The notes below the pieces were generated by a model. The model was not told the DNA's origin. It was given only the letters and a program-made list of their open reading frames with translations, and ran no database searches. The position numbers were made by a program, and so were the translations under genes. Positions 1-45,676 of a stretch of DNA of 64,000 nucleotides are shown piece after piece; the first letter of the stretch is position 1, and the number at the start of each line of letters is the position of its first letter. The stretch comes from Escherichia phage phiWec179. The stretch lies in sequence record LC739533.1. One strand, written 5' to 3'.

Positions 1-35
1 GATTTAGCCATGATGTTAATCTCTTTTTCAGTGAG

Positions 36-94
36 GCGGGAACTATTCCCGCGCCCTATGTAATACAGTTTACTCTTTTTATTCGTGCTGTCAA
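36..94 (-). promoter_or_regulatory. Early promoter (TTGACA-N16-TAAACT) with conserved 5' leader hairpin, copy 1
   Basis: Minus strand: -35 TTGACA (89-94), 16-nt spacer, -10 TAAACT (67-72), then GTATTACATAGGGCG and perfect hairpin GCGGGAA/TTCCCGC (36-52). ATG of the next leftward gene is at 9-11; that gene runs off the window. Confidence 0.6.
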
Positions 95-100
95 TGCTTT

Positions 101-454
101 TTATAAATCTTTTTTACGTTTTACATCGCTTGCATGACTGTATACAGCGATCCCATTATCACGACAAAAACGGGTAAGGTATGATCCGCGTGAAAACTCT
201 TTCCCTTCCAGGTCAACAACCTTGCTAAATTCTTCCAGGGCAACGGTATCAAAATGATCACCATAACCATATTGAAACGGCACGTTAACAACTTCAATCA
301 ATTTACCGCCGATCTCAACGTCCACGCTTAAAGAAAAATATGTGTTACCGTAGGACTGTTGAAACCAGCGACGGGCGCTAATGTGAACGGCTTCAATCTC
401 ACCAATTTTAAATTGAGTGTTACCCAGGATCGCAACGTTGATATTTTTAGCCAT
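101..454 (-). CDS. Hypothetical protein (117 aa)
   Basis: Intact ORF in the leftward early cluster; no motif recognised. Confidence 0.6.
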   Translation of the reverse strand: MAKNINVAILGNTQFKIGEIEAVHISARRWFQQSYGNTYFSLSVDVEIGGKLIEVVNVPFQYGYGDHFDTVALEEFSKVVDLEGKEFSRGSYLTRFCRDNGIAVYSHASDVKRKKDL

Positions 455-550
455 GATTTTTTCTCTCTTTTTGGTTAGTGGGAAGTGTTCCCGATAAAAG
501 TTATTATGCTTATACTATCGTTTTTTGTCAATAGTATAAGACTAAAACTT

Positions 551-730
551 TTAACGATAATCATCGTAGGCTTTATTAACCTGGCGAATATAACATTCGA
601 AAGCGAGATCAATAGAATCATATTCCCGCACATAATCCCCGTAAGAAACTACATACACACCTTTTTGATCCTCAAACGTCATGATGATAGAATCCAGGCC
701 GATGATTTCAGTTTTAGCGATGATAGTCAT
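551..730 (-). CDS. Small hypothetical protein (59 aa)
   Basis: ORF MTIIAKTEIIGLD...; just downstream of promoter copy 2; not in the ORF track (<60 aa). Confidence 0.45.
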   Translation of the reverse strand: MTIIAKTEIIGLDSIIMTFEDQKGVYVVSYGDYVREYDSIDLAFECYIRQVNKAYDDYR

Positions 731-751
731 AATAATAACCTTTTTATTGTT

Positions 752-808
752 GGCGGCACCATTGCCGCCCTACGTGATAAACTATACCAGAATTTTAAAC
801 AGTGTCAA
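752..808 (-). promoter_or_regulatory. Early promoter (TTGACA-N16-TATAGT) with conserved 5' leader hairpin, copy 2
   Basis: Minus strand: -35 (803-808), -10 (781-786), then TTATCACGTAGGGCGG and perfect 7-bp hairpin GGCGGCA-AUGG-UGCCGCC (752-769). Confidence 0.6.
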
Positions 809-818
809 ACGTTTTTTC

Positions 819-1064
819 TTAGTTTGCGAAATATGGCGCGGCGGCTGATGCCGTTAATCTCCAAGTGATTTGGCTATCGATCAAGTATTCTTCATTCTTG
901 ATCCGCACGGTATCAATCGAGAAGTTACTGAAAGGCTTGCTCTTGATTTTACGAACAACCGTTACACGACGGTTATTTTTCATCTCTTTTAACTGAATCC
1001 AGGCGTAACCTTTTTCATTGACAAATATTTCATTGTGATTGGTGATAGATGATAAGTGTTTCAT
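819..1064 (-). CDS. Hypothetical protein (81 aa)
   Basis: ORF directly downstream of promoter copy 3. Confidence 0.55.
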   Translation of the reverse strand: MKHLSSITNHNEIFVNEKGYAWIQLKEMKNNRRVTVVRKIKSKPFSNFSIDTVRIKNEEYLIDSQITWRLTASAAAPYFAN

Positions 1065-1087
1065 GATTTTTCTCTCTTCTGTTTTGA

Positions 1088-1147
1088 GCGGTGGACCATT
1101 CCGCCGCCCTATGTGTTACATCTTACTACTTTTTTAAACATTGTCAA
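1088..1147 (-). promoter_or_regulatory. Early promoter (TTGACA-N16-TAAGAT) with conserved 5' leader hairpin, copy 3
   Basis: Minus strand: -35 (1142-1147), -10 (1120-1125), then GTAACACATAGGGCGGCGG and hairpin (1088-1107, one mismatch). Confidence 0.6.
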
Positions 1148-1155
1148 GGATATTT

Positions 1156-1437
1156 TTAACTATATGATCCACATCGTTCGCAGTAGTGATCATCGTCGTC
1201 ATCTGCTACCTGGCTGATAAAATGATCTACCTTTGCTTTCAAATTATTATAATTGCTTTCTACTTCCTGTAGTCGTCGTTGGTAGTATTCCAGGGCTTGC
1301 ACATAGGCCATTTGTTCGGTTTTAGCTTGCATAGCTAAATTCATGCCACGCGTTTCATCGTATAACCAATAACCATCATTACATTCACTAATAGATAGTG
1401 TAGGGCTTAGTTTTTCGTGACGGATAACCTTGCTCAT
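1156..1437 (-). CDS. Hypothetical protein (93 aa)
   Basis: Intact ORF; acidic DDDDD stretch followed by CxxC near the C-terminus. Confidence 0.55.
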   Translation of the reverse strand: MSKVIRHEKLSPTLSISECNDGYWLYDETRGMNLAMQAKTEQMAYVQALEYYQRRLQEVESNYNNLKAKVDHFISQVADDDDDHYCERCGSYS

Positions 1438-1447
1438 AGTGTGCCCC

Positions 1448-1558
1448 TTACTTCAAAATGATTGTTGTGATAACTGCTACGGTGATCCAGAATGGAACAA
1501 CTAAGATAATAGCGTTAATCGTTCCAACTGTCAAACTATTTTCTTTCTTGATCATCAT
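1448..1558 (-). CDS. Putative small hydrophobic peptide (36 aa)
   Basis: MMIKKENSLTVGTINAIILVVPFWITVAVITTIILK; AAGGA RBS. The longer track ORF 1448..1681 would run through the promoter hairpin. Confidence 0.35.
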   Translation of the reverse strand: MMIKKENSLTVGTINAIILVVPFWITVAVITTIILK

Positions 1559-1565
1559 GTTTTCC

Positions 1566-1649
1566 TTACAGTGTCCAAAGAATGATTTCAAGTGCAGCAC
1601 GGAAACCAGGAATAAAATTGATTGCAAAAAACAGGGAAGTAGTAAACAT
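1566..1649 (-). CDS. Putative tiny hydrophobic peptide (27 aa)
   Basis: MFTTSLFFAINFIPGFRAALEIILWTL; ATG about 20 nt downstream of the copy 4 hairpin. Confidence 0.25.
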   Translation of the reverse strand: MFTTSLFFAINFIPGFRAALEIILWTL

Positions 1650-1671
1650 TTTTCTATCCTTTCAGTTGTGA

Positions 1672-1727
1672 GCGGCACCATTGCCGCCTGATGAGTTAAC
1701 TATAAGGGATCACGTTTTACCTGTCAA
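1672..1727 (-). promoter_or_regulatory. Early promoter (TTGACA-N17-TATAGT) with conserved 5' leader hairpin, copy 4
   Basis: Minus strand: -35 (1722-1727), -10 (1699-1704), then TAACTCATCAGGCGG and hairpin GCGGCAAUGGUGCCGC (1672-1687). Confidence 0.55.
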
Positions 1728-2281
1728 CCTAAATCATCAAAATAAAGATAATTTTTTTCGGCTTCTTTCTTCTCTTCCTGTGATGCCTCAAAGACTGGGA
1801 GAAAGTGATCAAAGGCGACGCACTCAACCGCTTGATCGTCTTCCTCTTCCTGGTCTTCCTCCTGGGCTATGGCTGCAATTTTGGCTAATTTCCTTTCAGC
1901 CTGGATCAGCTTACCATCTAAAACGCTTTTAGCGGTGCTGTACGCCGTCCAAGTGATGCGCTTACTTTCCAGCGCGGCATCAAGCGCCGCTATCTTGCTG
2001 GGGTATTCATCCAGGACACGAAAAGCCGGATCTACCTTGTACAGCGGATTATCTTTCGCGCCGTCGCTATCATCTGCGGCGCTTGCAATGTCAGCGTTAC
2101 CATTCGCCAGCCAACCAGGGCGATCGCTGCGTGTTTTGGTATTCCCATGACTACGCGCCGATCTGTTGCCTACTTGCTCGCCACTATAGCCAGGAGCATG
2201 ATCGATCATGTCGTCCGGTATAATGCGCGGATCATTAACGTCATGTTTTACCCAGGACTGGATCACATATTCGCGCCCCAT
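1724..2281 (-). CDS. Hypothetical protein (185 aa)
   Basis: Intact ORF with acidic C-terminal region (EEDQEEEDD); no motif recognised. Confidence 0.6.
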   Translation of the reverse strand: MGREYVIQSWVKHDVNDPRIIPDDMIDHAPGYSGEQVGNRSARSHGNTKTRSDRPGWLANGNADIASAADDSDGAKDNPLYKVDPAFRVLDEYPSKIAALDAALESKRITWTAYSTAKSVLDGKLIQAERKLAKIAAIAQEEDQEEEDDQAVECVAFDHFLPVFEASQEEKKEAEKNYLYFDDLG

Positions 2282-2541
2282 TATACACCCCTTTTAACAA
2301 TCATTTCACACACAAGAAATAAGCTGGCGGAATCACGGCAAGGATAGAAAGATGTACGATAATCTCTCACCCCTGCTTTTATGATCTCCGTGGTTTTACC
2401 TGATAGCACATTGTAAATAGTGTAACTTGTCGGACTGTTTTTATATACCTTGCCAGGGTAGATCATAACATAACGAGCAAGGTTATAAAATTCCTCGTTA
2501 CGAAAGGCTATGATCTTCCCGCATACCTTAAGAAAGTGCAC
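2281..2541 (-). CDS. Hypothetical protein (86 aa), GTG start
   Basis: GTG at 2539-2541 preceded by AAGGGGG RBS; stop overlaps the start of the downstream gene. Confidence 0.45.
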   Translation of the reverse strand: MHFLKVCGKIIAFRNEEFYNLARYVMIYPGKVYKNSPTSYTIYNVLSGKTTEIIKAGVRDYRTSFYPCRDSASLFLVCEMIVKRGV

Positions 2542-2551
2542 GTTAGCCCCC

Positions 2552-2824
2552 TTACAGCAAAAAGTTTACTTGTCTTGCTGTTAATGTAGTATCAACCATT
2601 TTCGGGCTTTTATAATTGACAAAACGCGCGGTTTTTTCAATAGCGAAGCCGAGATAATCTTGTTTGTTGAAATTACATTCTTTCTTAAATGTTTCCCGTG
2701 CAATGGCGATCGCTGCGTCCAGGGATAAACGCCCGTCAATATTGATATTTGCGAAAGATCCGCCACCGCTCATAGGTTTACCAGTGGTGCCCGTTACGAT
2801 CATTGTTGCGCTATATGATGCCAT
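2552..2824 (-). CDS. Hypothetical protein (90 aa)
   Basis: Start taken at the internal Met (MASYSATMIV...) downstream of the copy 5 hairpin; the track start at 2860 lies inside the hairpin. Confidence 0.55.
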   Translation of the reverse strand: MASYSATMIVTGTTGKPMSGGGSFANINIDGRLSLDAAIAIARETFKKECNFNKQDYLGFAIEKTARFVNYKSPKMVDTTLTARQVNFLL

Positions 2825-2846
2825 GATGATAATCTCTCTTAGTTGT

Positions 2847-2908
2847 GAGCGGTGGACCATTCCGCCGCTCTACGTGATACATCTTATCAGGTTGTTGCCT
2901 GTTGTCAA
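2847..2908 (-). promoter_or_regulatory. Early promoter (TTGACA-N16-TAAGAT) with conserved 5' leader hairpin, copy 5
   Basis: Minus strand: -35 (2903-2908), -10 (2881-2886), then GTATCACGTAGAGCGGCGG and hairpin 2847-2870. Confidence 0.6.
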
Positions 2909-2914
2909 TACTTT

Positions 2915-3112
2915 TTATTCAAGCCCTACGATATGTAAGACACGGCGATTAGCAATAGCGTGCTGGTCTTCTGTTATAACGCCCATTTCTACCAGTGAAT
3001 CAAGAAAGGAAAGCACCGTGATATATTCGTCATCGGGTACACTCATTTCATTAGTACCGTTTACCACTACGTTGATTTGTCCTGCTTTCGCTACAATGTG
3101 CAATGTTGCCAT
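2915..3112 (-). CDS. Hypothetical protein (65 aa)
   Basis: Intact ORF with GGAG RBS; first gene of the leftward small-gene cluster. Confidence 0.5.
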   Translation of the reverse strand: MATLHIVAKAGQINVVVNGTNEMSVPDDEYITVLSFLDSLVEMGVITEDQHAIANRRVLHIVGLE

Positions 3113-3309
3113 GATCTTAACTCCAGGTGATGAATGATGTTTTTTGTTGGTTGACGGTGGATTATGGAGATCCTCACCTTTGCCCGTCCTGCATTGCGCC
3201 CTCCTGTTGTTTATTGTCGTTGTGCCTCGCCCCCCTCGACAAGATTAATACTACGCTACCAGGTGCGGAACGTCAACGACTTTTTCAATCTTTTTTATTT
3301 TCTTTTTGC

Positions 3310-3653: not shown

Positions 3654-3655
3654 TC

Positions 3656-3684
3656 TTGACAAGCCCAGGGATCGGGCTTATACT
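3656..3684 (+). promoter_or_regulatory. Consensus sigma70 promoter (TTGACA-N17-TATACT) firing into a non-coding region
   Basis: Perfect -35 at 3656-3661, 17-nt spacer, -10 TATACT at 3679-3684. No credible ORF with an RBS lies downstream before about 4470. Confidence 0.6.
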
Positions 3685-3908
3685 GTTTTACATACAGAAG
3701 AGGAAGCGCCACCCCACGGCGTAAAGGCGGGGCTAACATACCAGGGGCACTGGTTGGAAGGTCGATCGCCGGGAGGCTGGGCGCTATATATTTGTAAAGA
3801 AATGTAAAGATAAAATAATCGCTTGCTTTCCTGGCTGGATCTGTTATTCTTATTACATGGCGAGGGGACACGGGAGCGCGAGACAATCACCGGACCTGCC
3901 CGTCATTC

Positions 3909-4020
3909 TGCAAATGAGAAAAATTCTCATTTGCAAATAAGACTCATTCGCATTTAATAATTGAATGAGAATCATTCTCATTCTCATTCGTATTTCGATT
4001 TTAAGTGAGAATAATTCTCA
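3909..4020. repeat. Three palindromic operator-like sites with core TGAGAA-N1-3-TTCTCA
   Basis: Palindromes at 3909-3935 (12-bp arms), 3963-3983 (10-bp arms) and 4006-4020 (7-bp arms). Confidence 0.7.
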
Positions 4021-4034
4021 TTTCGGTAATTTTC

Positions 4035-4219
4035 ACGTAAACTTTAGAATTTGCTTTTCAACTTTCACTTTTGTAAAAGCAAAAAAACTTTAAATACCTG
4101 GTGCGCGCGACTTTTTAAAAAATTTTTCTCGGTTTTTTGCTTTGAAATCTGGCCCACCAATTTGAGATAGTGTACGTAAACTTTAGAATTTGGTTTTGGA
4201 TTCTCACTTTTGTAAACTC
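4035..4219. repeat. Imperfect ~46-bp direct repeat pair plus TTGAGATA triplet
   Basis: ACGTAAACTTTAGAATTT identical at 4035-4052 and 4174-4191, with similar extensions ending ACTTTTGTAAA. TTGAGATA occurs at 4162, 4248 and 4271. AT-rich context. Confidence 0.7.
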
Positions 4220-4375
4220 GTAAAAAGTTTAAATAATTGTAGGGATTTTGAGATAGTTTGCTTGTAAGGTTTGAGATAATCCTTCCCGAAGATGTTACGC
4301 AGCCTACAGCCTACCTGAATGCTCGTCTAACGAGATTAACTCTAAAAGATGAGTGTTGGTGTAGCTAAAGAGAAA

Positions 4376-4402
4376 AGGCTCTCTACGGTGTTGTAGGAGC
4401 CT
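4376..4402. terminator. Intrinsic terminator hairpin, probably bidirectional
   Basis: Stem AGGCUC/GAGCCU with extended CUAC/GUAG pairing; T-rich tail on the minus strand (UUUUCUCUUU) after the leftward operon, weaker T-tract on plus. Confidence 0.55.
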
Positions 4403-4473
4403 TATTTCTGTGGCACAAAGTTGACGTATTCTTTTTAAAAACGAATTTTTTCAAAATATCACGAATATCGCCT

Positions 4474-5001
4474 TTATGGTATTTTGGCTGGGAACAGGAT
4501 TTTAATCAGATTGTTGTGGTATTGTCCTAAAAGATTCTGCCCTTTCCAGTTGGCAGGATTAAGCACCCCTGGTTCGTACATACCCATTCCAATTCCGTAA
4601 ACCTTATCATAAGGACTCGCCTCAACGAACGTTTTGAATTGGTACAGTCGCAAGTCAGAATAAAGATCAGGGTTCTGTGTATACTTCAAGCATAAGCCTC
4701 GCATTACGATACGCTCTCGGTACTCTTCCCACATGTCATTATTAAAACCAGACACCGCTCGACCCATGCGCTTGTAGTATGCCTGTCCCTTCTCGTCGTC
4801 ACGCTTCATTGAGTGATCAAGGATAGCTGCTGCGATTACCTGATCCTTGAACAGCAAAGCCTTACGCCACATCATGTATTGCTCTACACAACAGAAAGTT
4901 TCATTGTACCCTGGTTCCGTCTCTGTGAATGGTGCAATGTACCAATTGCTAAACACATCTTTATGTGAAAAGAAGAATACATATTCATTAGTTATTCGCA
5001 T
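4474..5001 (-). CDS. NADAR (YbiA-like, DUF1768) domain protein; candidate ADP-ribosyl-guanine hydrolase
   Basis: Recalled YbiA/NADAR family motifs: FFFSHKDVFSNWY, CCVEQYMMWRKALLF, RMGR, YTQNPDL...FVEASPYD..YGIGMG...NLLGQ. Confidence 0.8.
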   Translation of the reverse strand: MRITNEYVFFFSHKDVFSNWYIAPFTETEPGYNETFCCVEQYMMWRKALLFKDQVIAAAILDHSMKRDDEKGQAYYKRMGRAVSGFNNDMWEEYRERIVMRGLCLKYTQNPDLYSDLRLYQFKTFVEASPYDKVYGIGMGMYEPGVLNPANWKGQNLLGQYHNNLIKILFPAKIP

Positions 5002-5176
5002 TTTTCATGCCTCTTAAGACTTCAGCTTGCCCGTCTTGAAAAGCTTTCATCAGAACTATCTTAAGATTGACTTCCAAGCGTTCTTCATCCTCTTTATAAC
5101 AATCCAACACTGCCTTAAGTTCATCATAGTGGTTCAGAATAGGTTTAAAGATTTCATGATCTGCTAAACGTGCCAT
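4988..5176 (-). CDS. Hypothetical protein (62 aa)
   Basis: Start at MARLADHEIF with AAGGAG RBS; the track's upstream Met at 5212 has no RBS. Confidence 0.5.
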   Translation of the reverse strand: MARLADHEIFKPILNHYDELKAVLDCYKEDEERLEVNLKIVLMKAFQDGQAEVLRGMKNANN

Positions 5177-5189
5177 AGTTTCTCCTTTG

Positions 5190-5555
5190 TTAGTCCATCC
5201 ACCAGTAGCCATAAACTGCGTCTGCGTCGATGAGTTTGTGTTTGTTGTTCCGCATGTAGTCTAAGATAAGTAGACGTTTATTGTATCTGGAGAGATTATG
5301 ACCCTCTTTTCCGCCATAGTCAAAATATTTTGCAAGACTTTTACACTCAAACAAAATCAGTTCGGGAGTTTCTTCACATTGGTCTGTCTGGTACACTTGA
5401 CGGATGATCATGTATACGTCATCGTCTTCCGCTAAGTGCTCTACTGGTCCACACCCAGCAGGAATAAATTCATAGTCCCATCGAATCAGATGTTTCTCTA
5501 CTGCTTCAAAGAAATCCATTTTTTCGCTACGCATGATCTGAACATCAATTAACAT
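5190..5555 (-). CDS. Hypothetical protein (121 aa)
   Basis: ORF with AGGAGG RBS; overlaps the stop of the upstream gene. Confidence 0.55.
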   Translation of the reverse strand: MLIDVQIMRSEKMDFFEAVEKHLIRWDYEFIPAGCGPVEHLAEDDDVYMIIRQVYQTDQCEETPELILFECKSLAKYFDYGGKEGHNLSRYNKRLLILDYMRNNKHKLIDADAVYGYWWMD

Positions 5556-6561
5556 AATTTTCCTCCTGTCTCATTATTCCACCTGCTTGGTTGATAGCAC
5601 TTAAGACAACAGCCAAATCCTCACGCAGGAAGGTTTCACTATGACCGTCTTTCATGTGCAACGCTTCCACACAGCCGATAGACGGTAGGATCTGATCAGT
5701 CTTAGATTTTAGCTTACTCTCTAACGCCCTGCAAGCCTGGTAGGACGGCAGATCAAACAATGCTACACGTTGCATAAAGTAGTTATTATTTGCATTCTGA
5801 ATCTTCAAACGTATATCACTATCCTTTGCAATCCCCAGCTTGAAAGCTCCCGTATCTTCTCCATACTCATCAAGGATAACGTTGATGTAAAATTCTTGCT
5901 GTGATCTGCCTTTACATTCAGAACAACCATTCCCACTTAGATACTTATTAGGTGTTATCGTTTGTTCTCCGTGCTCACTACATAAATATTTAAACTTAGA
6001 CATGGTTCCCACCTTACCAACGAACCCTATAAACTGGTCCCCTCGTTCCTGGCAAGCTTCAGTCATACGGAAAATCCATTGCGCAGGAGTGTAACGATGG
6101 TTTTTAGAACAACGGCAAGCAAGCAGCCCATCTCTAAGACTGCTCCTCGTTACTTCAAACCTACCGTTACACACGCCAGCCTTTACATATTCGTCATGAG
6201 AACATACGGAACACTTAACTATCCAATAAGCCGCCCATCCTTTACTATCTAATCTATCACTACGATAATACTCACGCGGAACGTTATCAGGACACGCTTT
6301 GTTAAAGGTTGTGATATGGATTGAATCATCAATTAAACATGTTTGCCTTATTGCTTCCACCCTACAACCTTTACAACCACTTCCTATTTTAGCATTATCT
6401 ATAGAAGTTGTTCTCCATTCCCCATGTATAGAACATTCACAGGTTAGTTTAGTGCGTGCCCCCTTCCATTCACCATGCCACCCCGTAATGGTCCACGGTT
6501 TATCCTGGTAAGCTTGTTCTATTTCTTCCTGATATTCCTCCCAACTTTTAGCCCTCATCAT
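5545..6561 (-). CDS. T5orf172-type (GIY-YIG superfamily) domain protein with N-terminal Cys-rich repeats; homing-endonuclease-like
   Basis: C-terminus FKLGIAKDSDIRLKIQN...ACRALESKL...KDGHSETF fits the T5orf172 pattern; CxxC / C..HG repeats in the N-terminal part. Paralog of 10129..11082. Confidence 0.6.
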   Translation of the reverse strand: MMRAKSWEEYQEEIEQAYQDKPWTITGWHGEWKGARTKLTCECSIHGEWRTTSIDNAKIGSGCKGCRVEAIRQTCLIDDSIHITTFNKACPDNVPREYYRSDRLDSKGWAAYWIVKCSVCSHDEYVKAGVCNGRFEVTRSSLRDGLLACRCSKNHRYTPAQWIFRMTEACQERGDQFIGFVGKVGTMSKFKYLCSEHGEQTITPNKYLSGNGCSECKGRSQQEFYINVILDEYGEDTGAFKLGIAKDSDIRLKIQNANNNYFMQRVALFDLPSYQACRALESKLKSKTDQILPSIGCVEALHMKDGHSETFLREDLAVVLSAINQAGGIMRQEENYVN

Positions 6562-6598: not shown

Positions 6599-7738
6599 TT
6601 AGAACACGCTACTTAAGGTTGCAGATCGTGTAGTGGTTGGTTCCAGAACCACACGGAACGTATCCCCAGGTTTATCGCTCACTACTACAATCTTACCACC
6701 TTCGATCAGGTCACACTTCAAACCTTCGGCAGTAGCTTTCAGGTCGATGCGTGGATCGCCATCATCATCCAGGATAACGTAGCTGCTATCTTCGAGAGGC
6801 TCCAGTTCTTCGTCTTTCACGGCTTCCAGGTAGATGTTCAGTTCACATGCACCAGACAAGAACTTGGTAGGAGTGAACTCATGCCAGTTGTTGACCCAGT
6901 TAGGCTTGATAGCTTTACCGTTGACAACAATAGAGCTAATCGTCCAGCGTGCATCGTTACCCAGAGAGATACCCATCATCTCCAGACAGGTCTTGAACGT
7001 CATTTTCGGATAGAAGTTTAACTCTTCTACGATCCCTTGAATAACATCGAAAGACAGTTCAGTGCTAACATCCCACAAACGTTGGAAGCTTTCAACATGT
7101 TTGCGATTCTTCAGATTCTTGTCCAGGTAGTCCAGCATAGTTTCAATAGACAGTTTGTCGTAGTTGAAGCTATAGAAGATACGGCTCGGACGGTTGACGA
7201 AGTATTCCGAGATGTATCCGCTGTTCTTTGTCAGCATGAACAGTTTGTTACCGCTACCTGTGCCATCCAGCAGAGTCAGCAGTGCTTCCTGATCTTCCTT
7301 CTTGGAATACACTTTGTCGAACTCATCGAACAGTACTACTGCGCGTTCAGAGATCTTACTCATGAACTCCAGGAAATTGGCATCAGAATATGGCTGCGTT
7401 ACCAGAATAGTTGGGATTCCCAGGTCTTCCGCTTCCAACAGAGTGTTACTGATCAGTTTTGCCAGCATTGTCTTGCCACTGCCTTTTGTACCCGACAACA
7501 GGACACCTGTGTTCTTACCTTCTTTACTACGACGAGCGAAGGTACGGATAACGTGGGCTGCACGTTCTTTGGTTTCCCCGTACAGGCGATCAGGAATCGT
7601 GAACTTATCAGCGCGACTAAGAGAATAGTTACCATGTGGATCACAATTGACAGTCCAAACGCCAGCGGGGAGTTTATCAACCTCTACACCAAAATCTTTA
7701 TTAACAATTGCAACATCCCCATAAACTGTGTATTTCAT
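6599..7738 (-). CDS. AAA+ family ATPase
   Basis: Walker A GTKGSGKT, Walker B VVLFDEFD, downstream arginine-containing segment NRPSRI. Confidence 0.75.
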   Translation of the reverse strand: MKYTVYGDVAIVNKDFGVEVDKLPAGVWTVNCDPHGNYSLSRADKFTIPDRLYGETKERAAHVIRTFARRSKEGKNTGVLLSGTKGSGKTMLAKLISNTLLEAEDLGIPTILVTQPYSDANFLEFMSKISERAVVLFDEFDKVYSKKEDQEALLTLLDGTGSGNKLFMLTKNSGYISEYFVNRPSRIFYSFNYDKLSIETMLDYLDKNLKNRKHVESFQRLWDVSTELSFDVIQGIVEELNFYPKMTFKTCLEMMGISLGNDARWTISSIVVNGKAIKPNWVNNWHEFTPTKFLSGACELNIYLEAVKDEELEPLEDSSYVILDDDGDPRIDLKATAEGLKCDLIEGGKIVVVSDKPGDTFRVVLEPTTTRSATLSSVF

Positions 7739-7763
7739 TTACTTTCTCCTCTTCTGTTGGAAT

Positions 7764-7798
7764 AGACGTATTATCTCTTGTCTAATACGTCTTGTCAA
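7764..7798 (-). promoter_or_regulatory. Promoter (TTGACA-N17-GATAAT) embedded in a 10-bp inverted repeat
   Basis: Minus strand: -35 (7793-7798), -10 (7770-7775). Perfect inverted repeat AGACGTATTA (7764-7773) / TAATACGTCT (7783-7792) spans the -10 box. Confidence 0.5.
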
Positions 7799-7806
7799 TA
7801 CTTGTT

Positions 7807-8166
7807 TTAGATCCCTTCGCCTTTAGTGATGATAGCTTCCATCACCACAGCTTTCTTCTTACGTTGAACATCTTGACGGATCAGGAGGCTACCACCTTGA
7901 TCATCCTTATACTGCTTCATGATGATGAAGTTGTTGCCACACACAGCGCCGATAGCCACGTATGGGCGATTAGAATTATCCACATCCGCAGATGGGGTTA
8001 CATCCGTGCAAGTAAAGAACTTGCCATCAGGATCAGTATAAGCAAAGTGGCCTTTAGCAGTTACTGCAACTTCTCCGGTGCTTGTGGACTGTGCAGCCAC
8101 AAACGGTGCAGCAGATGCTACGAAACTTGCAGACAGCAGGGCTACAGCTAAAATAATCTTTTTCAT
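7807..8166 (-). CDS. Secreted protein with N-terminal signal peptide (119 aa)
   Basis: MKKIILAVALLSASFVASA then mature domain; AGAGGAG RBS. Confidence 0.65.
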   Translation of the reverse strand: MKKIILAVALLSASFVASAAPFVAAQSTSTGEVAVTAKGHFAYTDPDGKFFTCTDVTPSADVDNSNRPYVAIGAVCGNNFIIMKQYKDDQGGSLLIRQDVQRKKKAVVMEAIITKGEGI

Positions 8167-9994: not shown

Positions 9995-10039
9995 TTTGTT
10001 CTCCTCTCACATTAGGACACGTTTTGTGTCGATGGGTGT

Positions 10040-10104
10040 AGATTACGTGAGCACAAAGGGGTTGTCAACTACTTATTGACAAAAATTTCTAAACGTTGTA
10101 AATT
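10040..10104. promoter_or_regulatory. Divergent back-to-back sigma70-like promoters
   Basis: Plus: TTGACA (10076-10081)-N17-TAAATT (10099-10104). Minus: TTGACA (10063-10068)-N17-TAATCT (10040-10045). The -35 boxes form the palindrome TTGTCAA-N7-TTGACAA (10062-10082). Confidence 0.6.
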
Positions 10105-10128
10105 AAAAACATCTACAAAGGAGGAAAC

Positions 10129-11082
10129 ATGAAATACGAAGATTTTAAACAAATAGTTAAAGACGATGTGGTATTTGAGAACTTACAGGAAGGTTGTGAA
10201 GTCTTAGGTTGGACAGAAAGAGATAGAAACTTTGCAAAAATATACGTAATACGTTGTAGTGTTTGTGCCAAAGACCCCGAAATGTATGGAGATGGTCTTT
10301 TTACAGCTACAAAAGGGCGTTTAGTGAAAGGTCAGAAATGTTGCGCGTGCGCTGTATCCTTTAAATACAGTCAAAACCAACACCTAATTCTGCTAAACAG
10401 GCATTTAAGTGTCGCAGGGTACAGCATAGTTTCTATTGGTGCTTGGGAGTGTTCTAAGACGAGAATAGAGTTTAGTTGTGAGAATGGACACACGAAGAAC
10501 AGAACCCTGGCTCAAGCAAAGGTAGTAGAACCTTGTAAACAGTGTCTTGAAGAAGGCTGTACAAAACACAAACAAGATGAGGCAGAGGCAAAAATTATGA
10601 AGATAATAGAAGATAAATGTTTACCTTATGTATTTGTAGGGTGGGATACTTCTTACAAGAATGTAACTTCAAAATTCAACCTCATCTGTTCGGATCACGG
10701 TTTAAAAACAATAAGATACGCTTGTTTCCTAAATGGTCATTTTTGTAACGAGTGTTCTGGTAGAAATTGCCTAAGTCTTTATTTATTAGGAGTTTATGAT
10801 AGAGACTTGTTGGTAGGTTTAAAATTTGGCATCTCTCAGAGTCCAGTAAGAAGGGTTCAACAGTTAAATAAAAGGAACTTATTTAAATGTAAAATACTAC
10901 AGATTTGGACTTTTACATCACATGATCAAGCTGTACGGATGGAAACATTATTAAAGAACACATTGCGAACTGGAATATTTACTAAAAGAGAGATGAAAGA
11001 TGGTCATACAGAAACCACAGAAGTTACTAATTTAGAAACCATAATGGACCTTATGACCTCATCTCATGGATTGGTTAGTTAA
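10129..11082 (+). CDS. T5orf172-type (GIY-YIG superfamily) domain protein with N-terminal Cys-rich repeats; homing-endonuclease-like
   Basis: C-terminus LKFGISQSPVRRVQQLN...AVRMETLLKN...KDGHTET; CxxC / C..HG repeats. Paralog of 5545..6561. Confidence 0.6.
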   Translation: MKYEDFKQIVKDDVVFENLQEGCEVLGWTERDRNFAKIYVIRCSVCAKDPEMYGDGLFTATKGRLVKGQKCCACAVSFKYSQNQHLILLNRHLSVAGYSIVSIGAWECSKTRIEFSCENGHTKNRTLAQAKVVEPCKQCLEEGCTKHKQDEAEAKIMKIIEDKCLPYVFVGWDTSYKNVTSKFNLICSDHGLKTIRYACFLNGHFCNECSGRNCLSLYLLGVYDRDLLVGLKFGISQSPVRRVQQLNKRNLFKCKILQIWTFTSHDQAVRMETLLKNTLRTGIFTKREMKDGHTETTEVTNLETIMDLMTSSHGLVS

Positions 11083-24057: not shown

Positions 24058-24714
24058 ATGACTATTAAACATATCTCTTTTGATGTATGGAACACACTGA
24101 TCACAGCAAACCCCAATTACGCAGATATGCGAGCGTGGACTATCGCAAAATACGGGGATATTACGGAAGTAGAAGCAAGAGCAGCTTACAAGAAGATCAA
24201 AAAGGAACTGGACAATGCCGCACTTCAGGGAACAGCCGAGTGTGCAGCATATGCCTGGGAAAGACTTGGTTACGAACTTGGGATAACACCTTTGAAGTCT
24301 GCAAAGCTTCGTTTCGAGTGTGAACAGTGGTTCCTTAAGTTTCCACCGCATGTGGCTGTGGATTTACCGATGCACTTGCTGTATCTTTCGGGGCGTTATG
24401 ATTTGAGCATCAAGAGTAATACCAACTTCATATCAGGAGATATCTTGCGACGTGCCTGTAAGTTTGAAGGTTGGAATTGTTTTGAGTTCACACATTTCTC
24501 GGATGAAGCTTTACTTTGTAAACCAGATCCGCGATTCTTTGCTCGCACGATCACTTATTCTCCAATCCCTCTGGTAGGGCAGGAAGTGTTGCACGTAGGT
24601 GATAGTGAAGAATATGATGGAAAATGTGTTGACGTAGGATTTAACTTCTGTCATATTAAGAACCCTAACGACTTGTTAGATAAACTTGCTAAAGGAGAAC
24701 TTGTTAATGCGTAA
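24058..24714 (+). CDS. HAD-superfamily hydrolase-like protein
   Basis: Motif I-like ISFDVWNTLI (second Asp replaced), motif II SIKSNTN, motif III CKPDP, motif IV VGDSEEYD. Confidence 0.5.
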   Translation: MTIKHISFDVWNTLITANPNYADMRAWTIAKYGDITEVEARAAYKKIKKELDNAALQGTAECAAYAWERLGYELGITPLKSAKLRFECEQWFLKFPPHVAVDLPMHLLYLSGRYDLSIKSNTNFISGDILRRACKFEGWNCFEFTHFSDEALLCKPDPRFFARTITYSPIPLVGQEVLHVGDSEEYDGKCVDVGFNFCHIKNPNDLLDKLAKGELVNA

Positions 24715-25534
24715 TCAAACTCAAATCTTTGCTCACAAATTCGATAGTCTGGAAACTGCTCGCTTTGATATTCGTGACTATTCCAAACTGAAGTTTGGCA
24801 GCAACCAGGCGGCTCGCCGTATGGGGCGAACGCTGGCAGTCTCTTTCTATGACTTGGTAGTCAAGAATATGCCGGAAGAAGAATTTGTGGTGATTCCTTC
24901 ACCTTACAACCATGTGCATAACGCAGCAACCATGATGACCAATCAGTTCATCAACTTCCTGAACCTGTTGCTGTTGAATCACAAGGGTAGCCGTGCAGTA
25001 GAATTGGATACGATCCACCGCAAGGTGAGTTACATTAACGATTATGGTTTCCTGGACAAAGCGAGCCGTAAGAAACTGATTGATGGTGACACCTTCTATT
25101 GCAACAAAGATTTTTGGGGCAACAAGAAGCTGATCTTCATTGATGATGTGAACATCACGGGAACTCATGAAGACAAACTGATTGAGATCCTGGATGAAAA
25201 TAAAGTTACGAATGATGTTTACTTCCTGTATTTTGCGAAGTATACTGGTAATCAAGCAGACACAGAGGCTAAACTGAACTTCAACCATATTAACACGACA
25301 GATGCTTTTGTTAAGATGATCAATGAAGAATGTGATGCGCAGTGTCTTGTTCGTCCTATCAAGTATTTGATGGGACAAACACCGGAAGAGTTTAAAATCA
25401 TTCTTTCCCGTTTGCCGCACCAATACGTAGAAGCACTGTTCTTTGGGTGTCTTGGGGAAGGTTATGATAAGATCGAGAAGTATTCTGAAAACTTCGTCTT
25501 CCTGAACCGTTACTTTAACCAGCATATCCTGTAA
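24707..25534 (+). CDS. Type I phosphoribosyltransferase (PRTase) domain protein
   Basis: PRPP-binding loop KLIFIDDVNITGTHED. Start at MRNQTQ after AAAGGAG RBS. Confidence 0.65.
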   Translation: MRNQTQIFAHKFDSLETARFDIRDYSKLKFGSNQAARRMGRTLAVSFYDLVVKNMPEEEFVVIPSPYNHVHNAATMMTNQFINFLNLLLLNHKGSRAVELDTIHRKVSYINDYGFLDKASRKKLIDGDTFYCNKDFWGNKKLIFIDDVNITGTHEDKLIEILDENKVTNDVYFLYFAKYTGNQADTEAKLNFNHINTTDAFVKMINEECDAQCLVRPIKYLMGQTPEEFKIILSRLPHQYVEALFFGCLGEGYDKIEKYSENFVFLNRYFNQHIL

Positions 25535-25543
25535 GGAGGGAAA

Positions 25544-26026
25544 ATGTTGAAGGTTGTTACTGGGAATCTGATCGATGCCGCCAAGAATGGGAAAGTGAAC
25601 GTTATAGCCCACTGTTGTAACTGTATGTGTAATATGGGTGCAGGGATTGCTCCGCAAATTAAACGAGCATTTCCTTATGCATATGCAGCCGACTTGGATA
25701 CAGCGGCAGGTGATCAAAGCAAACTGGGTTCTTTTAGTTTAGGGGTGCCGGAGGAAGTGTCTGACCCACTGGTTTATAACCTGTACGGACAGTACCGTTA
25801 CGGGTATAACGGTAAAGGTCGTCAGTTGGACTATGATGCCCTGTACGATGCTCTTGAGGCTATGGCAAAGGATCTCCACAAATGGGTGAACACATCTGCC
25901 AAACATAAGATTGGTCTACCTATGATCGGAGCAGGGTTGGCAGGAGGTAATTGGGCTATCATTGAAGTGATGATTGAAGAAACTTTAGTAAAAACAGGTC
26001 ACGATGTGACTATTTATAAACTTTAA
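25544..26026 (+). CDS. Macro domain protein, TARG1/OARD1-like (ADP-ribose binding or hydrolysing)
   Basis: VNVIAHCCNCMCNMGAGIAPQIKRAFP and C-terminal LPMIGAGLAGGNWAIIEVMIEE...VTIYKL, close to recalled OARD1 motifs. Confidence 0.7.
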   Translation: MLKVVTGNLIDAAKNGKVNVIAHCCNCMCNMGAGIAPQIKRAFPYAYAADLDTAAGDQSKLGSFSLGVPEEVSDPLVYNLYGQYRYGYNGKGRQLDYDALYDALEAMAKDLHKWVNTSAKHKIGLPMIGAGLAGGNWAIIEVMIEETLVKTGHDVTIYKL

Positions 26027-26039
26027 GAGGAGAAATAAT

Positions 26040-26261
26040 ATGGGTGTTGTTGCAGGTGTTCTGGCAGTAGTTATCGTGTTTGTTCTGGCTTTCCTGATTA
26101 GTATGATTCCAGCATGGCTTCTGCTGCTGGCTTATAACTACGTTGTTGAAATGATGGGTCACACAGATATCACTGTTCCTATCACCTTCTGGACTGTGGT
26201 GTGTGTGGCATTTATCATGGCTGTACTACGTGGGATCTTTTCCTCAAGTTCTTCAAAATAA
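26040..26261 (+). CDS. Small membrane protein (73 aa)
   Basis: Two hydrophobic helices. Confidence 0.5.
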   Translation: MGVVAGVLAVVIVFVLAFLISMIPAWLLLLAYNYVVEMMGHTDITVPITFWTVVCVAFIMAVLRGIFSSSSSK

Positions 26262-26264
26262 GTG

Positions 26265-26323
26265 TTGACAAGGTTTTAGAATAGAGTAAGATGTATCACA
26301 TGAGGCGGGGAGTGGTTCCCCGC
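26265..26323 (+). promoter_or_regulatory. Conserved early promoter (TTGACA-N16-TAAGAT) with 5' leader hairpin, plus-strand copy upstream of terC
   Basis: -35 (26265-26270), -10 (26287-26292), then GTATCACATGAGGCGG and hairpin GCGGGGA/TCCCCGC (26305-26323). Confidence 0.6.
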
Positions 26324-26342
26324 AAAGAGAAAGGAGAAAATA

Positions 26343-27317
26343 ATGCAACTTGGTTTTCCAATCATTGATGTAGTGGTGTTGGTAGGTATTCTTGTTCTGT
26401 CGATCTGTGTTGACTTTTTTGGTCATCGTGAAAACAAGGAGATCTCTTTCAAATCCGCTGTGGCTTGGTCAGTATTCTGGATTGGTGTGTCTTTAGCCTA
26501 CTACGGTTTTGTATACTTCCAGCACGGCGCAGCTTTTGCAAACTTATTCTTGAGTGGATATGTGTTAGAGAAGTCGCTCTCGGTAGATAACTTGGTAGTG
26601 TTTGTAGCAGTGTTCTCCAGTTTCGGGATTAAGAGCACACACTTACAACACAAAATTCTACTCTGGGGTATTGCAGGTGCGATTGTCTTCCGAGGTGTGT
26701 TTGTAGCAGCAGGGACTTATCTGCTAAGTTTGGGTTGGTTTGTTAATATCATCTTCGGTGCTGTTATCCTGTTCTGTGCTTTTAAAATGGTAATGGCTGG
26801 CGGTGATGATGAAGAAGTGGATTACTCTAAACATTGGGCGACACGCTTTGTACGTAAACTATTCCCAGTATCGGATCAGATGGATGGCGAGAAGTTCTTC
26901 ACAATTAAGAATGGTGTTCGTGTAGCAACTCCGGCTCTGGTTTGTGTGTTCGTGATGGAAATGGTGGATGTGATCTTTGCAGTAGACTCGGTTCCGGCTG
27001 TAATTGCAGTGACACAAGAACCACTGCTTGTATTCTCTTCGATGCTCTGTGCAATCTTAGGCTTACGTGCTCTGTTCTTTGTTCTTAGTGTGGCCCTGAA
27101 GTATCTGGTTCACCTGGAAAAAGCAGTTATCGCAGTCCTGGTGTTTGTTGGTGTGAAACTGATGTATCACCCGTTTGCAGAAACGCTGCACGCAAAAGTG
27201 AGCTTCCTGCCAGCGCATATTGACCCGACGATCAGCATGTATATCGTGCTTGGTACTCTGACCCTGGGCGTGATTGCAAGTTTCATCTTCCCTGAAAAAG
27301 AAGAAGCTACCGCTTAA
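26343..27317 (+). CDS. terC: TerC-family integral membrane protein
   Basis: Signature segments EKSLSVDNLVVF and AVDSVPAVIAVTQEPLLVFSSMLCAILGLRALFF; multiple transmembrane helices. Confidence 0.85.
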   Translation: MQLGFPIIDVVVLVGILVLSICVDFFGHRENKEISFKSAVAWSVFWIGVSLAYYGFVYFQHGAAFANLFLSGYVLEKSLSVDNLVVFVAVFSSFGIKSTHLQHKILLWGIAGAIVFRGVFVAAGTYLLSLGWFVNIIFGAVILFCAFKMVMAGGDDEEVDYSKHWATRFVRKLFPVSDQMDGEKFFTIKNGVRVATPALVCVFVMEMVDVIFAVDSVPAVIAVTQEPLLVFSSMLCAILGLRALFFVLSVALKYLVHLEKAVIAVLVFVGVKLMYHPFAETLHAKVSFLPAHIDPTISMYIVLGTLTLGVIASFIFPEKEEATA

Positions 27318-40798: not shown

Positions 40799-43396
40799 AT
40801 GAGTAAGTTTACATGGGATATTGAAGCAACCGCATTACTGAACAATGACACAATTGATTACCTGGCAAGCCCTTATCGATTGAAAGACACTTTTGGTATG
40901 CATTGTATTTGTCTGGAAAACCACGAAACAGGAGAGATCATTGCTTTTCACGATGGTCCTAAGTACATTTTCGATGGTCGTCCTTATGAAGAGTCTGACG
41001 GTAAGTACACTTATGTACTGAAGGAGTATGTGGCACAAGAATACACACACTTTCCTCTGTCAGATTTTCCAGATTTTGTCAACCATACAGGCAAGTTCGC
41101 AGATAAGCCTGAATACCTCGTAGAAATGGCTGTAGCCCACAACGGCATCAACTATGACCACTTGGCAGTTAAGCTTTACTACGGGCTGAATTACAGCGTT
41201 AAATACAATACTTGGGGTGATTCGAAAGTTAAGATTATTGATACCCTGATCCTTAGTAAAGTATTGAACCCTGATCGCAAGGTTGATGGTAAACCTGGGC
41301 ACAACTTGAATGCTCTTTCTAAAAAAGCTGGCGGTGATGTTAAGATTGATTTCCGTAAAGAGCTTCCAGAAGGAGAACGATTCAAGACTTTCGCAGCAGA
41401 TATGTTGTACTACTGTATCTACGACAACAAGGCAACTACAGCAGTATATTATTACCTCATGGAAGAATGGGGCGATTATAAGAAGTGGCAAGAGCCGTTC
41501 GACTTGGAGCAACGTATTGCGGATATCATCACCCGTCAAGAACACCGTGGCTTTAAGTTCAACATGCAACAAGCTGAACAGAACCTGGAATTCTTGGACA
41601 AAGAAATGGAACGTCTACGTTTGTTGGTAGAGCCTATTCTTCCACCTAAGCCAGCGACTAAAGGTTATCTGAAAGATTTTATTCCGCCGAAACTTCAAAT
41701 CAAGAAGAACGGTGAGCCAACAAACCATATCATCAGGTTTGCGGAGAAACATGGCGGTAGCCTTGAAGAACGTGAAGGTGATTGGTGGCTGCTTGTTTTA
41801 GATAAAGAGTTTAAGTTACCGATCTCAAGTGAAGAACCTATTTGTGAACCTACCATTCCGTCTACGCTGAATGATACGACACACATTAAAAACTGGCTTG
41901 TAGGTTTAGGTTGGGTTCCGTCTGAATATAAAGACAAGGATTTGACGCTTAAATCTGGTTCGAAGATCAAGAAAGATCCTGACGACTTAGAGAAAGGTAT
42001 TCTGTCTTATGTCAAACAGACCTTGGAAAGCAATTTCTGTAATGACCGTTGCGAACACTTACAAGCCGATGCTGAAACACTGGAGCTTAGAATCCGTGAA
42101 CGTCTGGCTAAAGGGAAAGGTCGTGGTCTTAAAGTGCTGACCAACCCATGCTTCACGAAGGGGCAGGAGAAAGAGATTTGTCCTAATCTTGAAGCACTGG
42201 GCGAGAAGTTCCCGTATGCCACACAGATTGTGCAGTACCTGACGTACAAACATCGTCGAAACTCTATTTTGGGCGGTGGTGCAGATTGGGAAGACGATGA
42301 GGAAGATCAAGAATACGACAAAGGTTTCTTGGCAGCAGTTCGTGCCGATGGTCGTATAGCGACTCCAGCGGCTACATGTGACGCTGCAACATCTCGTATG
42401 AAGCATCGCTCTGTTGCTAACGTTCCTCGCGTTACATCGTTGTTTGGGTACGAAATGCGTAACTTGTTTGGGGTAGAAACACCGCGTTACTTCCAGATCG
42501 GTTATGACTTTGACTCCTTGGAAGCAAAGATTGAGTCGCATTATTGTTGGCGCTACGAACCGGAGCCTCATGAATACTGTAACGCTCTCTTGTTGGAGAA
42601 GCCTAACGATGTTCATACCATGATGGCAAGACGTATCACAGAAACTATTGGACGTAAGTTTGAACGTAGTCCAGCTAAATCTGTTAAATACGGGATTACA
42701 TATGGAGCACAGGCAGACAAAGTTGCTAAGACAATTGGTAGTGATAAGTACACAGGACAACTGGTATTTGATGCGTTCTGGGAAGCAGCTTTCCCGTTAG
42801 CACAACTGAAAGAGAAGTTGAATGCTTTCTGGGTTAACACTGGCAAGCAGTATGTTCTCGGTATTGATGGACGTAAAGTTCCAACACGATCTGCACATGC
42901 AATCTTAAACTCCTTGTTCCAAAGTGGCGGGGTTATCTGTGCCAAGCGTGCAATGGTAATCTATGACGATATGATTGAAGAGGAAGGTTTAGCTGTTGAC
43001 TTCTTCGTAGATGACTGGAAGAATAAAGAGTTCGTTCAGCAAATGATTGCTTACCACGATGAAGCGCAGCTTGAAGTATCTCGTAACTTGGTGGAATTTA
43101 AATGGTTCTCCAAAGAGTCTTTAGGTTGGGTTAAAGTGGATGACGAGAAAGAGCAGAAGAAAATAGATGCGGAATGTCTTGCAAAAGCTAATGAATGGAA
43201 GCATAATAAAGAGAAAGAGACAGGGCAGATTTGGGCTAACGTTCACGAATCACCTAAAGGTGGTTGGTTTACCGCTTATAGTCGTGCCGGAGAACTTGCT
43301 TCTCTTGCTGTTATCAAAGCTGGGGAATATTACAAACTAAACGTTCAGCTTACCGCTGGATACGATGTTGGTAGTTCCTGGGCCAGTTGTCATTGA
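40799..43396 (+). CDS. Family A DNA polymerase with 3'-5' proofreading exonuclease
   Basis: Exo I FTWDIEAT; motif A IGYDFDSLEAK; motif B RSPAKSVKYGITYG; motif C IAYHDEAQ. Confidence 0.85.
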   Translation: MSKFTWDIEATALLNNDTIDYLASPYRLKDTFGMHCICLENHETGEIIAFHDGPKYIFDGRPYEESDGKYTYVLKEYVAQEYTHFPLSDFPDFVNHTGKFADKPEYLVEMAVAHNGINYDHLAVKLYYGLNYSVKYNTWGDSKVKIIDTLILSKVLNPDRKVDGKPGHNLNALSKKAGGDVKIDFRKELPEGERFKTFAADMLYYCIYDNKATTAVYYYLMEEWGDYKKWQEPFDLEQRIADIITRQEHRGFKFNMQQAEQNLEFLDKEMERLRLLVEPILPPKPATKGYLKDFIPPKLQIKKNGEPTNHIIRFAEKHGGSLEEREGDWWLLVLDKEFKLPISSEEPICEPTIPSTLNDTTHIKNWLVGLGWVPSEYKDKDLTLKSGSKIKKDPDDLEKGILSYVKQTLESNFCNDRCEHLQADAETLELRIRERLAKGKGRGLKVLTNPCFTKGQEKEICPNLEALGEKFPYATQIVQYLTYKHRRNSILGGGADWEDDEEDQEYDKGFLAAVRADGRIATPAATCDAATSRMKHRSVANVPRVTSLFGYEMRNLFGVETPRYFQIGYDFDSLEAKIESHYCWRYEPEPHEYCNALLLEKPNDVHTMMARRITETIGRKFERSPAKSVKYGITYGAQADKVAKTIGSDKYTGQLVFDAFWEAAFPLAQLKEKLNAFWVNTGKQYVLGIDGRKVPTRSAHAILNSLFQSGGVICAKRAMVIYDDMIEEEGLAVDFFVDDWKNKEFVQQMIAYHDEAQLEVSRNLVEFKWFSKESLGWVKVDDEKEQKKIDAECLAKANEWKHNKEKETGQIWANVHESPKGGWFTAYSRAGELASLAVIKAGEYYKLNVQLTAGYDVGSSWASCH

Positions 43397-43423
43397 CATT
43401 TACTTGATTTTAAAGGAGTTTTT

Positions 43424-44020: not shown

Positions 44021-44028
44021 GAGGGTAT

Positions 44029-44223
44029 ATGCGTTACGATTTAGATTACTTTGGTATGCCTTACCTACCCGATGAGTTCGCAGATGAGGCGGAAGATCGT
44101 GAGTGGGATGATGGGGATATCCGTTGTTGGTCTTGTGGTAAAGACATGTCTTACGAACAACACATGCACAACGATGGCTTCTGTCCGCACTGTCAGAATG
44201 AAATAGATTTAGAGGAGGACTAA
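44029..44223 (+). CDS. Small zinc-ribbon protein (64 aa)
   Basis: CWSCGK...CPHCQN; AGGAGG RBS. Confidence 0.5.
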   Translation: MRYDLDYFGMPYLPDEFADEAEDREWDDGDIRCWSCGKDMSYEQHMHNDGFCPHCQNEIDLEED

Positions 44224-44225
44224 TA

Positions 44226-44393: not shown

Positions 44394-44402
44394 GGAGAAG
44401 AA

Positions 44403-45219: not shown

Positions 45220-45263
45220 TAAAGCTTGACTTTCACTAATCTTTTATGATAGGATGACAATCA

Positions 45264-45659: not shown

Positions 45660-45676
45660 ATATAGAGGAGATAATA

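Follow-up and report, generated by a model that had tools for sequence, protein, structure and literature searches.

The leftward open reading frame (ORF) at 4474–5001 of the window examined here (64,000 nucleotides of Escherichia phage phiWec179, sequence record LC739533.1) encodes a NADAR-domain protein. Judged by sequence and gene order, it is the syntenic ortholog of AdfN^Bas60, a validated anti-DarTG1 factor from a sister genus of the same phage subfamily, Stephanstirmvirinae. The protein is most likely an orphan antitoxin-like counter-defense factor of the AdfN class, directed against DarTG1, and we assign this reading a probability of roughly three in four. That the phiWec179 protein shares both the activity and the role of AdfN^Bas60 is something we infer from the 57% identity between them.

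The family assignment itself is confirmed, the match being far beyond chance. The Pfam profile PF08719 aligns with residues 11–161 of the protein over profile positions 3–154 of 163, with an E-value of 1.2e-33 and a score of 117.1 bits (gathering score, 35.1). A preliminary description of the window, made from the letters alone, had read a NADAR pattern along the whole ORF and had proposed a search against this profile as a check; the coordinates of the gene agree exactly, its strand, which the description left out, is minus, and the nearly full-length profile match bears the description out. The NCBIfam domain model TIGR02464 is passed as well (109.7 bits; cut-off 73.7), and there are matches to PHROG 1017 (E = 2.4e-48) and to the P. 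nicotianae NADAR (PnNADAR) solved with ADP-ribose (PDB 8BAU; E = 1e-13). An AlphaFold2 model based on an alignment of 50 homologs reaches a mean predicted local distance difference test score of 96.7 and a predicted template modeling score of 0.90. A Foldseek comparison of this model with the PDB yields two structures below E = 1, 8BAU at a template modeling (TM) score of 0.81 and E. coli YbiA (2B3W) at 0.71, and nothing else.

The residues on which catalysis would depend are likewise present. The residues that matter for guanine-ADP-ribose hydrolysis and rescue from DarT1 are E43 and K50 of PnNADAR, which contact ADP-ribose and are equivalent to E88 and K95 of the E. coli C7 NADAR, and the acidic position at E125 of PnNADAR (Schuller et al., 2023; PMC11543638). 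A HMMER alignment to 8BAU, in which the chain numbering is offset by 2, places E40, K47, and E127 of the phiWec179 protein at these three positions; all three are invariant across 50 aligned homologs spanning 37–94% identity. The loss of catalytic residues on alignment, which had been named beforehand as an observation that would speak against an active enzyme, was thus not found. Catalytic-residue mutants tested in related proteins lose activity: the E88, K95, and D171 mutants of the E. coli C7 NADAR fail to rescue cells from DarT1 (PMC11543638), and the E36A and K43A mutants of AdfN^T4 give partial rescue only.

The case for counter-defense comes largely from Bas60. The BASEL phages Bas60–62—the phi92-like phages PaulScherrer, EmilieFrey, and JohannJBalmer (Justusliebigvirus)—carry a NADAR named AdfN^Bas60, which its describers grouped with the non-YbiA bacterial NADARs (Johannesman et al., 2025, Nat Commun 16:1598; PMC11825919). 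AdfN^Bas60 neutralizes DarT1 in uninfected E. coli without other phage factors, and it brings RB69, T5, and Bas25 back to full titer on cells carrying DarTG1 (PMC11825919). When 150,000 of the 150,425 bases of Bas60 were searched with a profile of the phiWec179 NADAR clade, YbiA, and gp30.3 as queries, bas60_0111 (QXV83846.1) was the sole NADAR ORF detected, and for this reason we equate it with AdfN^Bas60; a search of the same clade-profile type finds one NADAR ORF in the phiWec179 window. The two proteins are 57% identical over their full length. The gene order AAA ATPase–CapR protein–NADAR–long noncoding gap is common to both phages, and the AAA+ ATPases are themselves 67% identical, which makes this a conserved neighborhood. 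It is the combination of protein identity and conserved neighborhood that identifies the phiWec179 gene as the ortholog of AdfN^Bas60. Both proteins are stand-alone core NADARs in like genomic positions, with E40, K47, and E127 identical between them; the phiWec179 protein differs in being 8 residues shorter, in lacking an insertion of 6–7 residues after residue 33, and in the sequence of its last ~10 residues. Related phages also carry it: the gene is present at E < 1e-40 in the records of 126 phages of Stephanstirmvirinae type.

In the proposed mechanism, a DarT1-type toxin would ADP-ribosylate the N2 position of guanine in phage DNA after infection, blocking replication. The NADAR would bind the attached ADP-ribose, with K47 at the phosphates and E40 and E127 at the distal ribose, and would cleave the N-glycosidic bond between ribose and guanine, releasing ADP-ribose and restoring an unmodified template that can be replicated. 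Rescue by the phiWec179 protein would be expected on DarTG1 only, and not on DarTG2, because every phage NADAR tested has failed against the thymidine-modifying DarTG2; AdfN^Bas60, specifically, gave T5 no help on DarTG2 cells (PMC11825919). The preliminary description had proposed a counter-defense role against DarTG-like systems in general: by homology to AdfN^Bas60 that proposal is supported for DarTG1, but it is not expected to extend to DarTG2.

Several points weigh against an anti-DarTG1 role. E. coli YbiA and T4 gp30.3 hydrolyze guanine-linked ADP-ribose in vitro, and yet neither neutralizes DarT1 in uninfected cells (Cihlova et al., 2024; PMC11125620). A shift in specificity is possible at 57% identity to AdfN^Bas60. 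For DarG1, rescue in cells also needs a lysine specific to that type, K115 in the numbering of the E. coli C7 NADAR. Finally, the NCBIfam model that the phiWec179 protein also passes, TIGR02464, is a domain model for a riboflavin N-glycosidase.

Taken together, the bare core domain of the protein (175 residues, with no N-terminal extension), its clade profile scores, and its sequence identities place it in the stand-alone, Glu-type 'NADAR' family, and not in the DarG1, T4-type, or YbiA-type families. With the clade profile, PnNADAR reaches 125 bits as compared with 66 bits for YbiA; 8BAU and YbiA are the only PDB entries that the profile recovers at E ≤ 1, with no DarG1 structure among them. 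PnNADAR, the best match among solved structures, shares the three catalytic residues with the phage protein at ~28% identity, but is eukaryotic and has no known counter-defense role. DarG1, the NADAR antitoxin associated with DarT1 (e.g., in E. coli C7 or G. lovleyi), opposes the same toxin by the chemistry proposed here, in which guanine-N2-ADP-ribose on DNA is hydrolyzed. However, DarG1 has an N-terminal extension, carries Asp at the position of Glu127, and is encoded next to darT1, whereas the phiWec179 gene encodes the core domain only, retains Glu127, and has no darT neighbor. No ADP-ribosyltransferase gene of any kind was seen among the genes neighboring it (the AAA ATPase, the CapR protein, and small ORFs). 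Being a phage-encoded, stand-alone NADAR without a linked darT is one mark of the AdfN class.

The T4 type is more distant. T4 gp30.3 (AdfN^T4) has in common with the phiWec179 protein its superfamily, a proposed anti-DarTG1 role, and a Glu-x6-Lys pair. The position equivalent to E125 of PnNADAR, however, is occupied by Asp in DarG1 and by His in phage NADARs of the T4 type (PMC11543638), as opposed to Glu127 here, and the two proteins are 14% identical in alignment with a BLASTP E-value of 2.1, i.e., no detectable similarity. AdfN^T4, moreover, is fully active only in the context of a T-even infection, a requirement that AdfN^Bas60 does not share. YbiA shares the NADAR fold, a Glu-type active site, and activity on guanine-linked ADP-ribose in vitro, but it is a LexA-regulated chromosomal housekeeping gene without DarT1 rescue in cells; the phiWec179 protein is 27–28% identical to it and is encoded in a phage operon, although it passes the generic TIGR02464 model nonetheless. 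A further E. coli NADAR, linked to the sigma-70 operon, gives partial rescue from DarT1 (PMC11125620); such a gene was sought for identity comparison, and the rpsU-dnaG-rpoD locus of one O157:H7 genome holds no NADAR. Membership in the NCBIfam 'NADAR family anti-phage protein' (DS32_2) was considered and rejected, since the score is 13.8 bits and the cut-off 240.

The class assignment bears directly on alternative functions. The alternative that survives best, though it is rather unlikely, is that the main natural substrate is a different ADP-ribose conjugate: guanosine- or cytidine-linked ADP-ribose placed on RNA or DNA by other ADP-ribosyltransferase toxins, or soluble ADP-ribose-derived immune signals. 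Removal of cytidine-linked ADP-ribose and activity on RNA are both found in the 'NADAR' and YbiA families, which are Glu-type, whereas enzymes of the DarG1 and T4 types leave cytidine-linked ADP-ribose in place (PMC12945103, PMC11833690), and E127 together with the clade profile scores (125 bits for PnNADAR and 66 for YbiA) puts the phiWec179 protein on the Glu-type side of this divide. Soluble targets are favored by Iyer et al., and the sister phage Bas60 is rich in genes of NAD (nicotinamide adenine dinucleotide) and ADP-ribose metabolism, with a macro–phosphoribosyltransferase–HAD cluster also present in the window, a sirtuin, and a phosphoribosyl-pyrophosphate (PRPP) synthetase-like protein accompanied by a nicotinamide phosphoribosyltransferase. 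AdfN^Bas60, however, suffices alone for full rescue from DarTG1; no defense system based on cytidine-linked ADP-ribose is known, and no NADAR is known to break down soluble immune signals. An activity of this kind could also exist in addition to the anti-DarTG1 role, with which it is compatible.

It is much less probable that the protein is a housekeeping-type N-glycosidase acting on intermediates of the riboflavin pathway, as YbiA/RibX does. The TIGR02464 model, titled 'riboflavin biosynthesis intermediates N-glycosidase', is passed (109.7 vs 73.7 bits), and relatives of the gene are labeled 'YbiA-like N-glycosidase' or 'GTP cyclohydrolase II'. But identity to E. coli YbiA is 27–28%, the clade profile prefers the non-YbiA PnNADAR, no riboflavin genes occur among the genes examined near the NADAR gene, and AdfN^Bas60 was placed with the non-YbiA bacterial NADARs (PMC11825919). 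Least probable of all is a noncatalytic action, in which the protein would bind and block a host effector: a phage NADAR with no need for enzymatic activity appears in 2024 work on Retron-Eco1, in so far as that work is cited in PMC11825919, but the invariance of E40, K47, and E127 in 50 homologs argues for selection on catalysis, and tested catalytic mutants of the NADAR family lose activity (partial rescue for AdfN^T4, none for C7).

The window also holds a macro-domain gene. The preliminary description had pointed to this gene and suggested that the phage carries two separate ADP-ribose-removing activities. The gene is real: although its protein passes the Pfam Macro model barely (23 bits vs 22), it has matches to the macrodomain of S. 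coelicolor SCO6735 (5E3B; E = 6e-13), to that of T. aquaticus DarG (E = 2.6e-7), and to TARG1 (E ~7e-7). SCO6735 cleaves thymidine-linked ADP-ribose on DNA, with an essential Gln85 that replaces the lysine of DarG and TARG1 (PMC9411070). The phage protein has Gln83 at this position (GQY aligned with GQH) and keeps His23, Asn26, and the glycine-rich diphosphate loop (MIGAGLAGG); Lys34 and Lys89 of SCO6735 are not conserved in it, and it has neither the catalytic lysine of DarG2 and TARG1 nor the DarT-binding domain of DarG2. It is also 35% identical to T4 ORF 60.5 (E = 6e-23), which we identify as tk.4 because its orthologs in T4-like phages are annotated 'tk.4'. The product of tk.4 is reported to be an anti-DarTG2 macrodomain, AdfM, without which T4 does not grow normally on DarTG2 (bioRxiv preprint 10.1101/2025.11.20.689424).

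The macro gene is matched by sequence to both an enzyme that acts on thymidine-linked ADP-ribose and a reported counter-defense factor, and is probably a second ADP-ribose eraser, acting on thymidine-linked ADP-ribose. The picture of two separate erasers in this phage seems reasonable, since T4 already pairs AdfN with AdfM. More tentatively, and with the odds against it, the combined reach of the two enzymes may be wider. Since the phiWec179 NADAR is Glu-type, unlike the His-type AdfN of T4 and the Asp-type DarG1, it may erase cytidine-linked ADP-ribose besides guanine-linked ADP-ribose, on DNA or RNA; with the macro enzyme acting on thymidine-linked ADP-ribose, the phage would then have a pair of enzymes for three of the four bases, one that might pre-empt undiscovered ADP-ribosylating defenses, for example cytidine-specific ones.

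The macro gene lies in the rightward cluster of replication and nucleotide-metabolism genes, beside genes for a ComF-like phosphoribosyltransferase and a HAD hydrolase. The full rightward string at 24058–27317, which is conserved, runs from a HAD-like hydrolase through the ComF-like phosphoribosyltransferase (PF15610, E = 7e-41) and the macro domain to a small membrane ORF and a TerC-family membrane protein. The trio of HAD, phosphoribosyltransferase, and macro genes recurs in Bas60 (bas60_0070–0072), which suggests a joint module for processing ADP-ribose or phosphoribosyl compounds, as opposed to a lone macro gene. Elsewhere in Bas60, the regions 7000–7812 and 43141–45839 encode a sirtuin-family protein, a PRPP-synthetase-like protein with a nicotinamide phosphoribosyltransferase, and an RNA ligase with polynucleotide kinase. 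Judged from Bas60, Stephanstirmvirinae appear to carry a rich NAD and ADP-ribose toolkit.

The immediate context of the NADAR gene is that of a compact phage operon (Table 1). It is the last gene of a tightly packed leftward cluster, whose point of divergence from the replication genes, which run rightward, lies near 10,000–10,130, and its start shares 14 nucleotides with the end of the upstream ORF at 4988..5212. The promoter-like sequence ahead of the AAA ATPase gene is likely the proximal promoter of a sub-operon comprising the AAA ATPase, the CapR protein, orf121, orf74, and NADAR. In Bas60 the CapR-repeat gene sits directly upstream of the NADAR gene, and the two small ORFs that intervene in phiWec179 have no counterpart at the Bas60 position. 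Downstream, the minus strand of 4355–4475 folds at −29.4 kcal/mol (z = −3.8), and the hairpin within it is probably the intrinsic terminator of the NADAR operon; because it is palindromic, it could also halt plus-strand transcription arriving from the intergenic region.

Table 1. Positions of the features of the phiWec179 window considered in the text (nucleotide numbering of the 64,000-nucleotide window; CDS, coding sequence).
Feature	Position	Strand	Remarks
NADAR-domain CDS, AdfN^Bas60 ortholog, predicted guanine-ADP-ribose DNA glycohydrolase	4474..5001	-	ATG start, 175 residues, stop codon included
Shine-Dalgarno-like AAGAGG	5010..5015	-	8 nucleotides 5' of the NADAR ATG, read from sequence
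Two small ORFs: 121 residues (phrog_24465), 5190-5555; 74 residues (phrog_22330), 4988-5212	4988..5555	-	Between the CapR protein and NADAR genes
CapR-homology-repeat protein, three repeats, PHROG endonuclease-like	5545..6561	-	38% identical to bas60_0110
AAA+ ATPase, first gene of the sub-operon	6599..7738	-	67% identical to bas60_0109, 'FtsH-like protease' in Bas60
Near-consensus sigma-70-type promoter TTGACA-17-GATAAT (11/12)	7770..7798	-	Just 5' of the AAA ATPase gene
Hairpin AAGGCUCCUAC-AACACC-GUAGAGAGCCUU, then U-rich UUCUCUUU	4375..4403	-	Inverted repeat, ~70 nucleotides past the NADAR stop
Near-consensus sigma-70 promoter TTGACA-17-TATACT	3656-3684	+	Followed by an ORF-free core of ~100 nucleotides
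Macro-domain CDS, 160 residues, ALC1-like / SCO6735 type	25544..26026	+	Gln83 at the essential Gln85 position; homolog of T4 Tk.4 (AdfM)

The sigma-70-like promoter and the position of the gene make early transcription of NADAR by the host polymerase plausible, in line with the early operon of the preliminary description. Further along the same strand, the block at 1–3137 is an array of small genes, many of them with a near-consensus promoter just 5' (e.g., at 531, 808, 1147, 1534, 1727, and 2908); it contains 19 sigma-70-like promoter sites on the minus strand against 8.2 expected, a pattern that looks like an early host-takeover region.

The noncoding gap 3' of the NADAR gene, 820 nucleotides at 3654–4473, has several notable features. 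Its first ~300 nucleotides are 88% identical to Justusliebigvirus, as compared with 57% for the adjacent NADAR protein. Within the gap, a core at ~3694–3790 with the motifs CGCCACCCCACGGCGTAAAGGCGGGGCTAACATACCAG and CTGGTTGGAAGGTCGATCGCCGG is almost invariant across Stephanstirmvirinae and Vequintavirinae (Mydovirus), while the flanking genes diverge. An ACCAG/CTGGT hairpin in this core keeps its stem and varies in loop length. The fold z-score of the core is +0.16, and compensatory change was seen in none of 29 predicted pairs across 9 sequences. ARAGORN finds no tRNA, either in the window or at related loci, and the gap has no Rfam match at E ≤ 1. The features labeled 'tRNA-Ile' and 'tRNA-Met' on the homologous stretch of Klebsiella phage vB_Kpn_K45PH128C2 (716–869) have no confirmation from ARAGORN and are probably annotation artifacts. 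A conserved small RNA is one possible identity of the core, and a signal at the DNA level is another.

Two sets of repeats follow in the same gap. A 21-nucleotide palindrome, AAATGAGAAnnATTCTCATTT, occurs four times within 3912–4023 (at 3912, 3935, 3963, and 4003), an array that resembles an operator or iteron set for a dimeric DNA-binding protein. A 62-nucleotide direct repeat is then present in two copies (4035–4096 and 4174–4235), 84% identical and 139 nucleotides apart. A promoter-like TTGTAA-16-AATAAT (4210–4237) closes the second copy, and a weaker version of it closes the first.

Existing annotation gives little indication of any of these functions. The window is 100% identical to phages phiWec181 and phiWec186 (LC739534/5), with window position 1 at position 48119 of the record, and in the GenBank record of phiWec181, which is classed under Phapecoctavirus, Stephanstirmvirinae, the gene product (BDU12427.1) is annotated 'hypothetical protein'. 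The describers of the phage proposed a new genus, 'Wecvirus', in a paper that leaves the NADAR unmentioned (PMC12695924). Labels for orthologs in related records range from 'hypothetical protein' to 'GTP cyclohydrolase II' and 'YbiA-like N-glycosidase'; the records using the second of these (e.g., OR352955.1, OM386656.1, LR597654.1) carry the note 'Uncharacterized domain COG3236 / GTP cyclohydrolase II'. The GTP cyclohydrolase II annotation can be rejected, as the protein consists of a NADAR domain only. The label was presumably carried over from fusion proteins.

The NADAR family, its mechanism, its phage counter-defense role, and its pairing with macro enzymes had all been reported between 2023 and 2025, and what is new here is only that this gene, unannotated so far and from a genus newly proposed, belongs to the class. 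'AdfN-type anti-DarTG1 factor' can now serve as the name of the gene, and its macro-domain companion can be noted as a candidate AdfM-type anti-DarTG2 factor. Better annotation of this kind aids prediction of which E. coli defenses can be beaten by the broad-host-range, therapy-relevant phages of the Stephanstirmvirinae.

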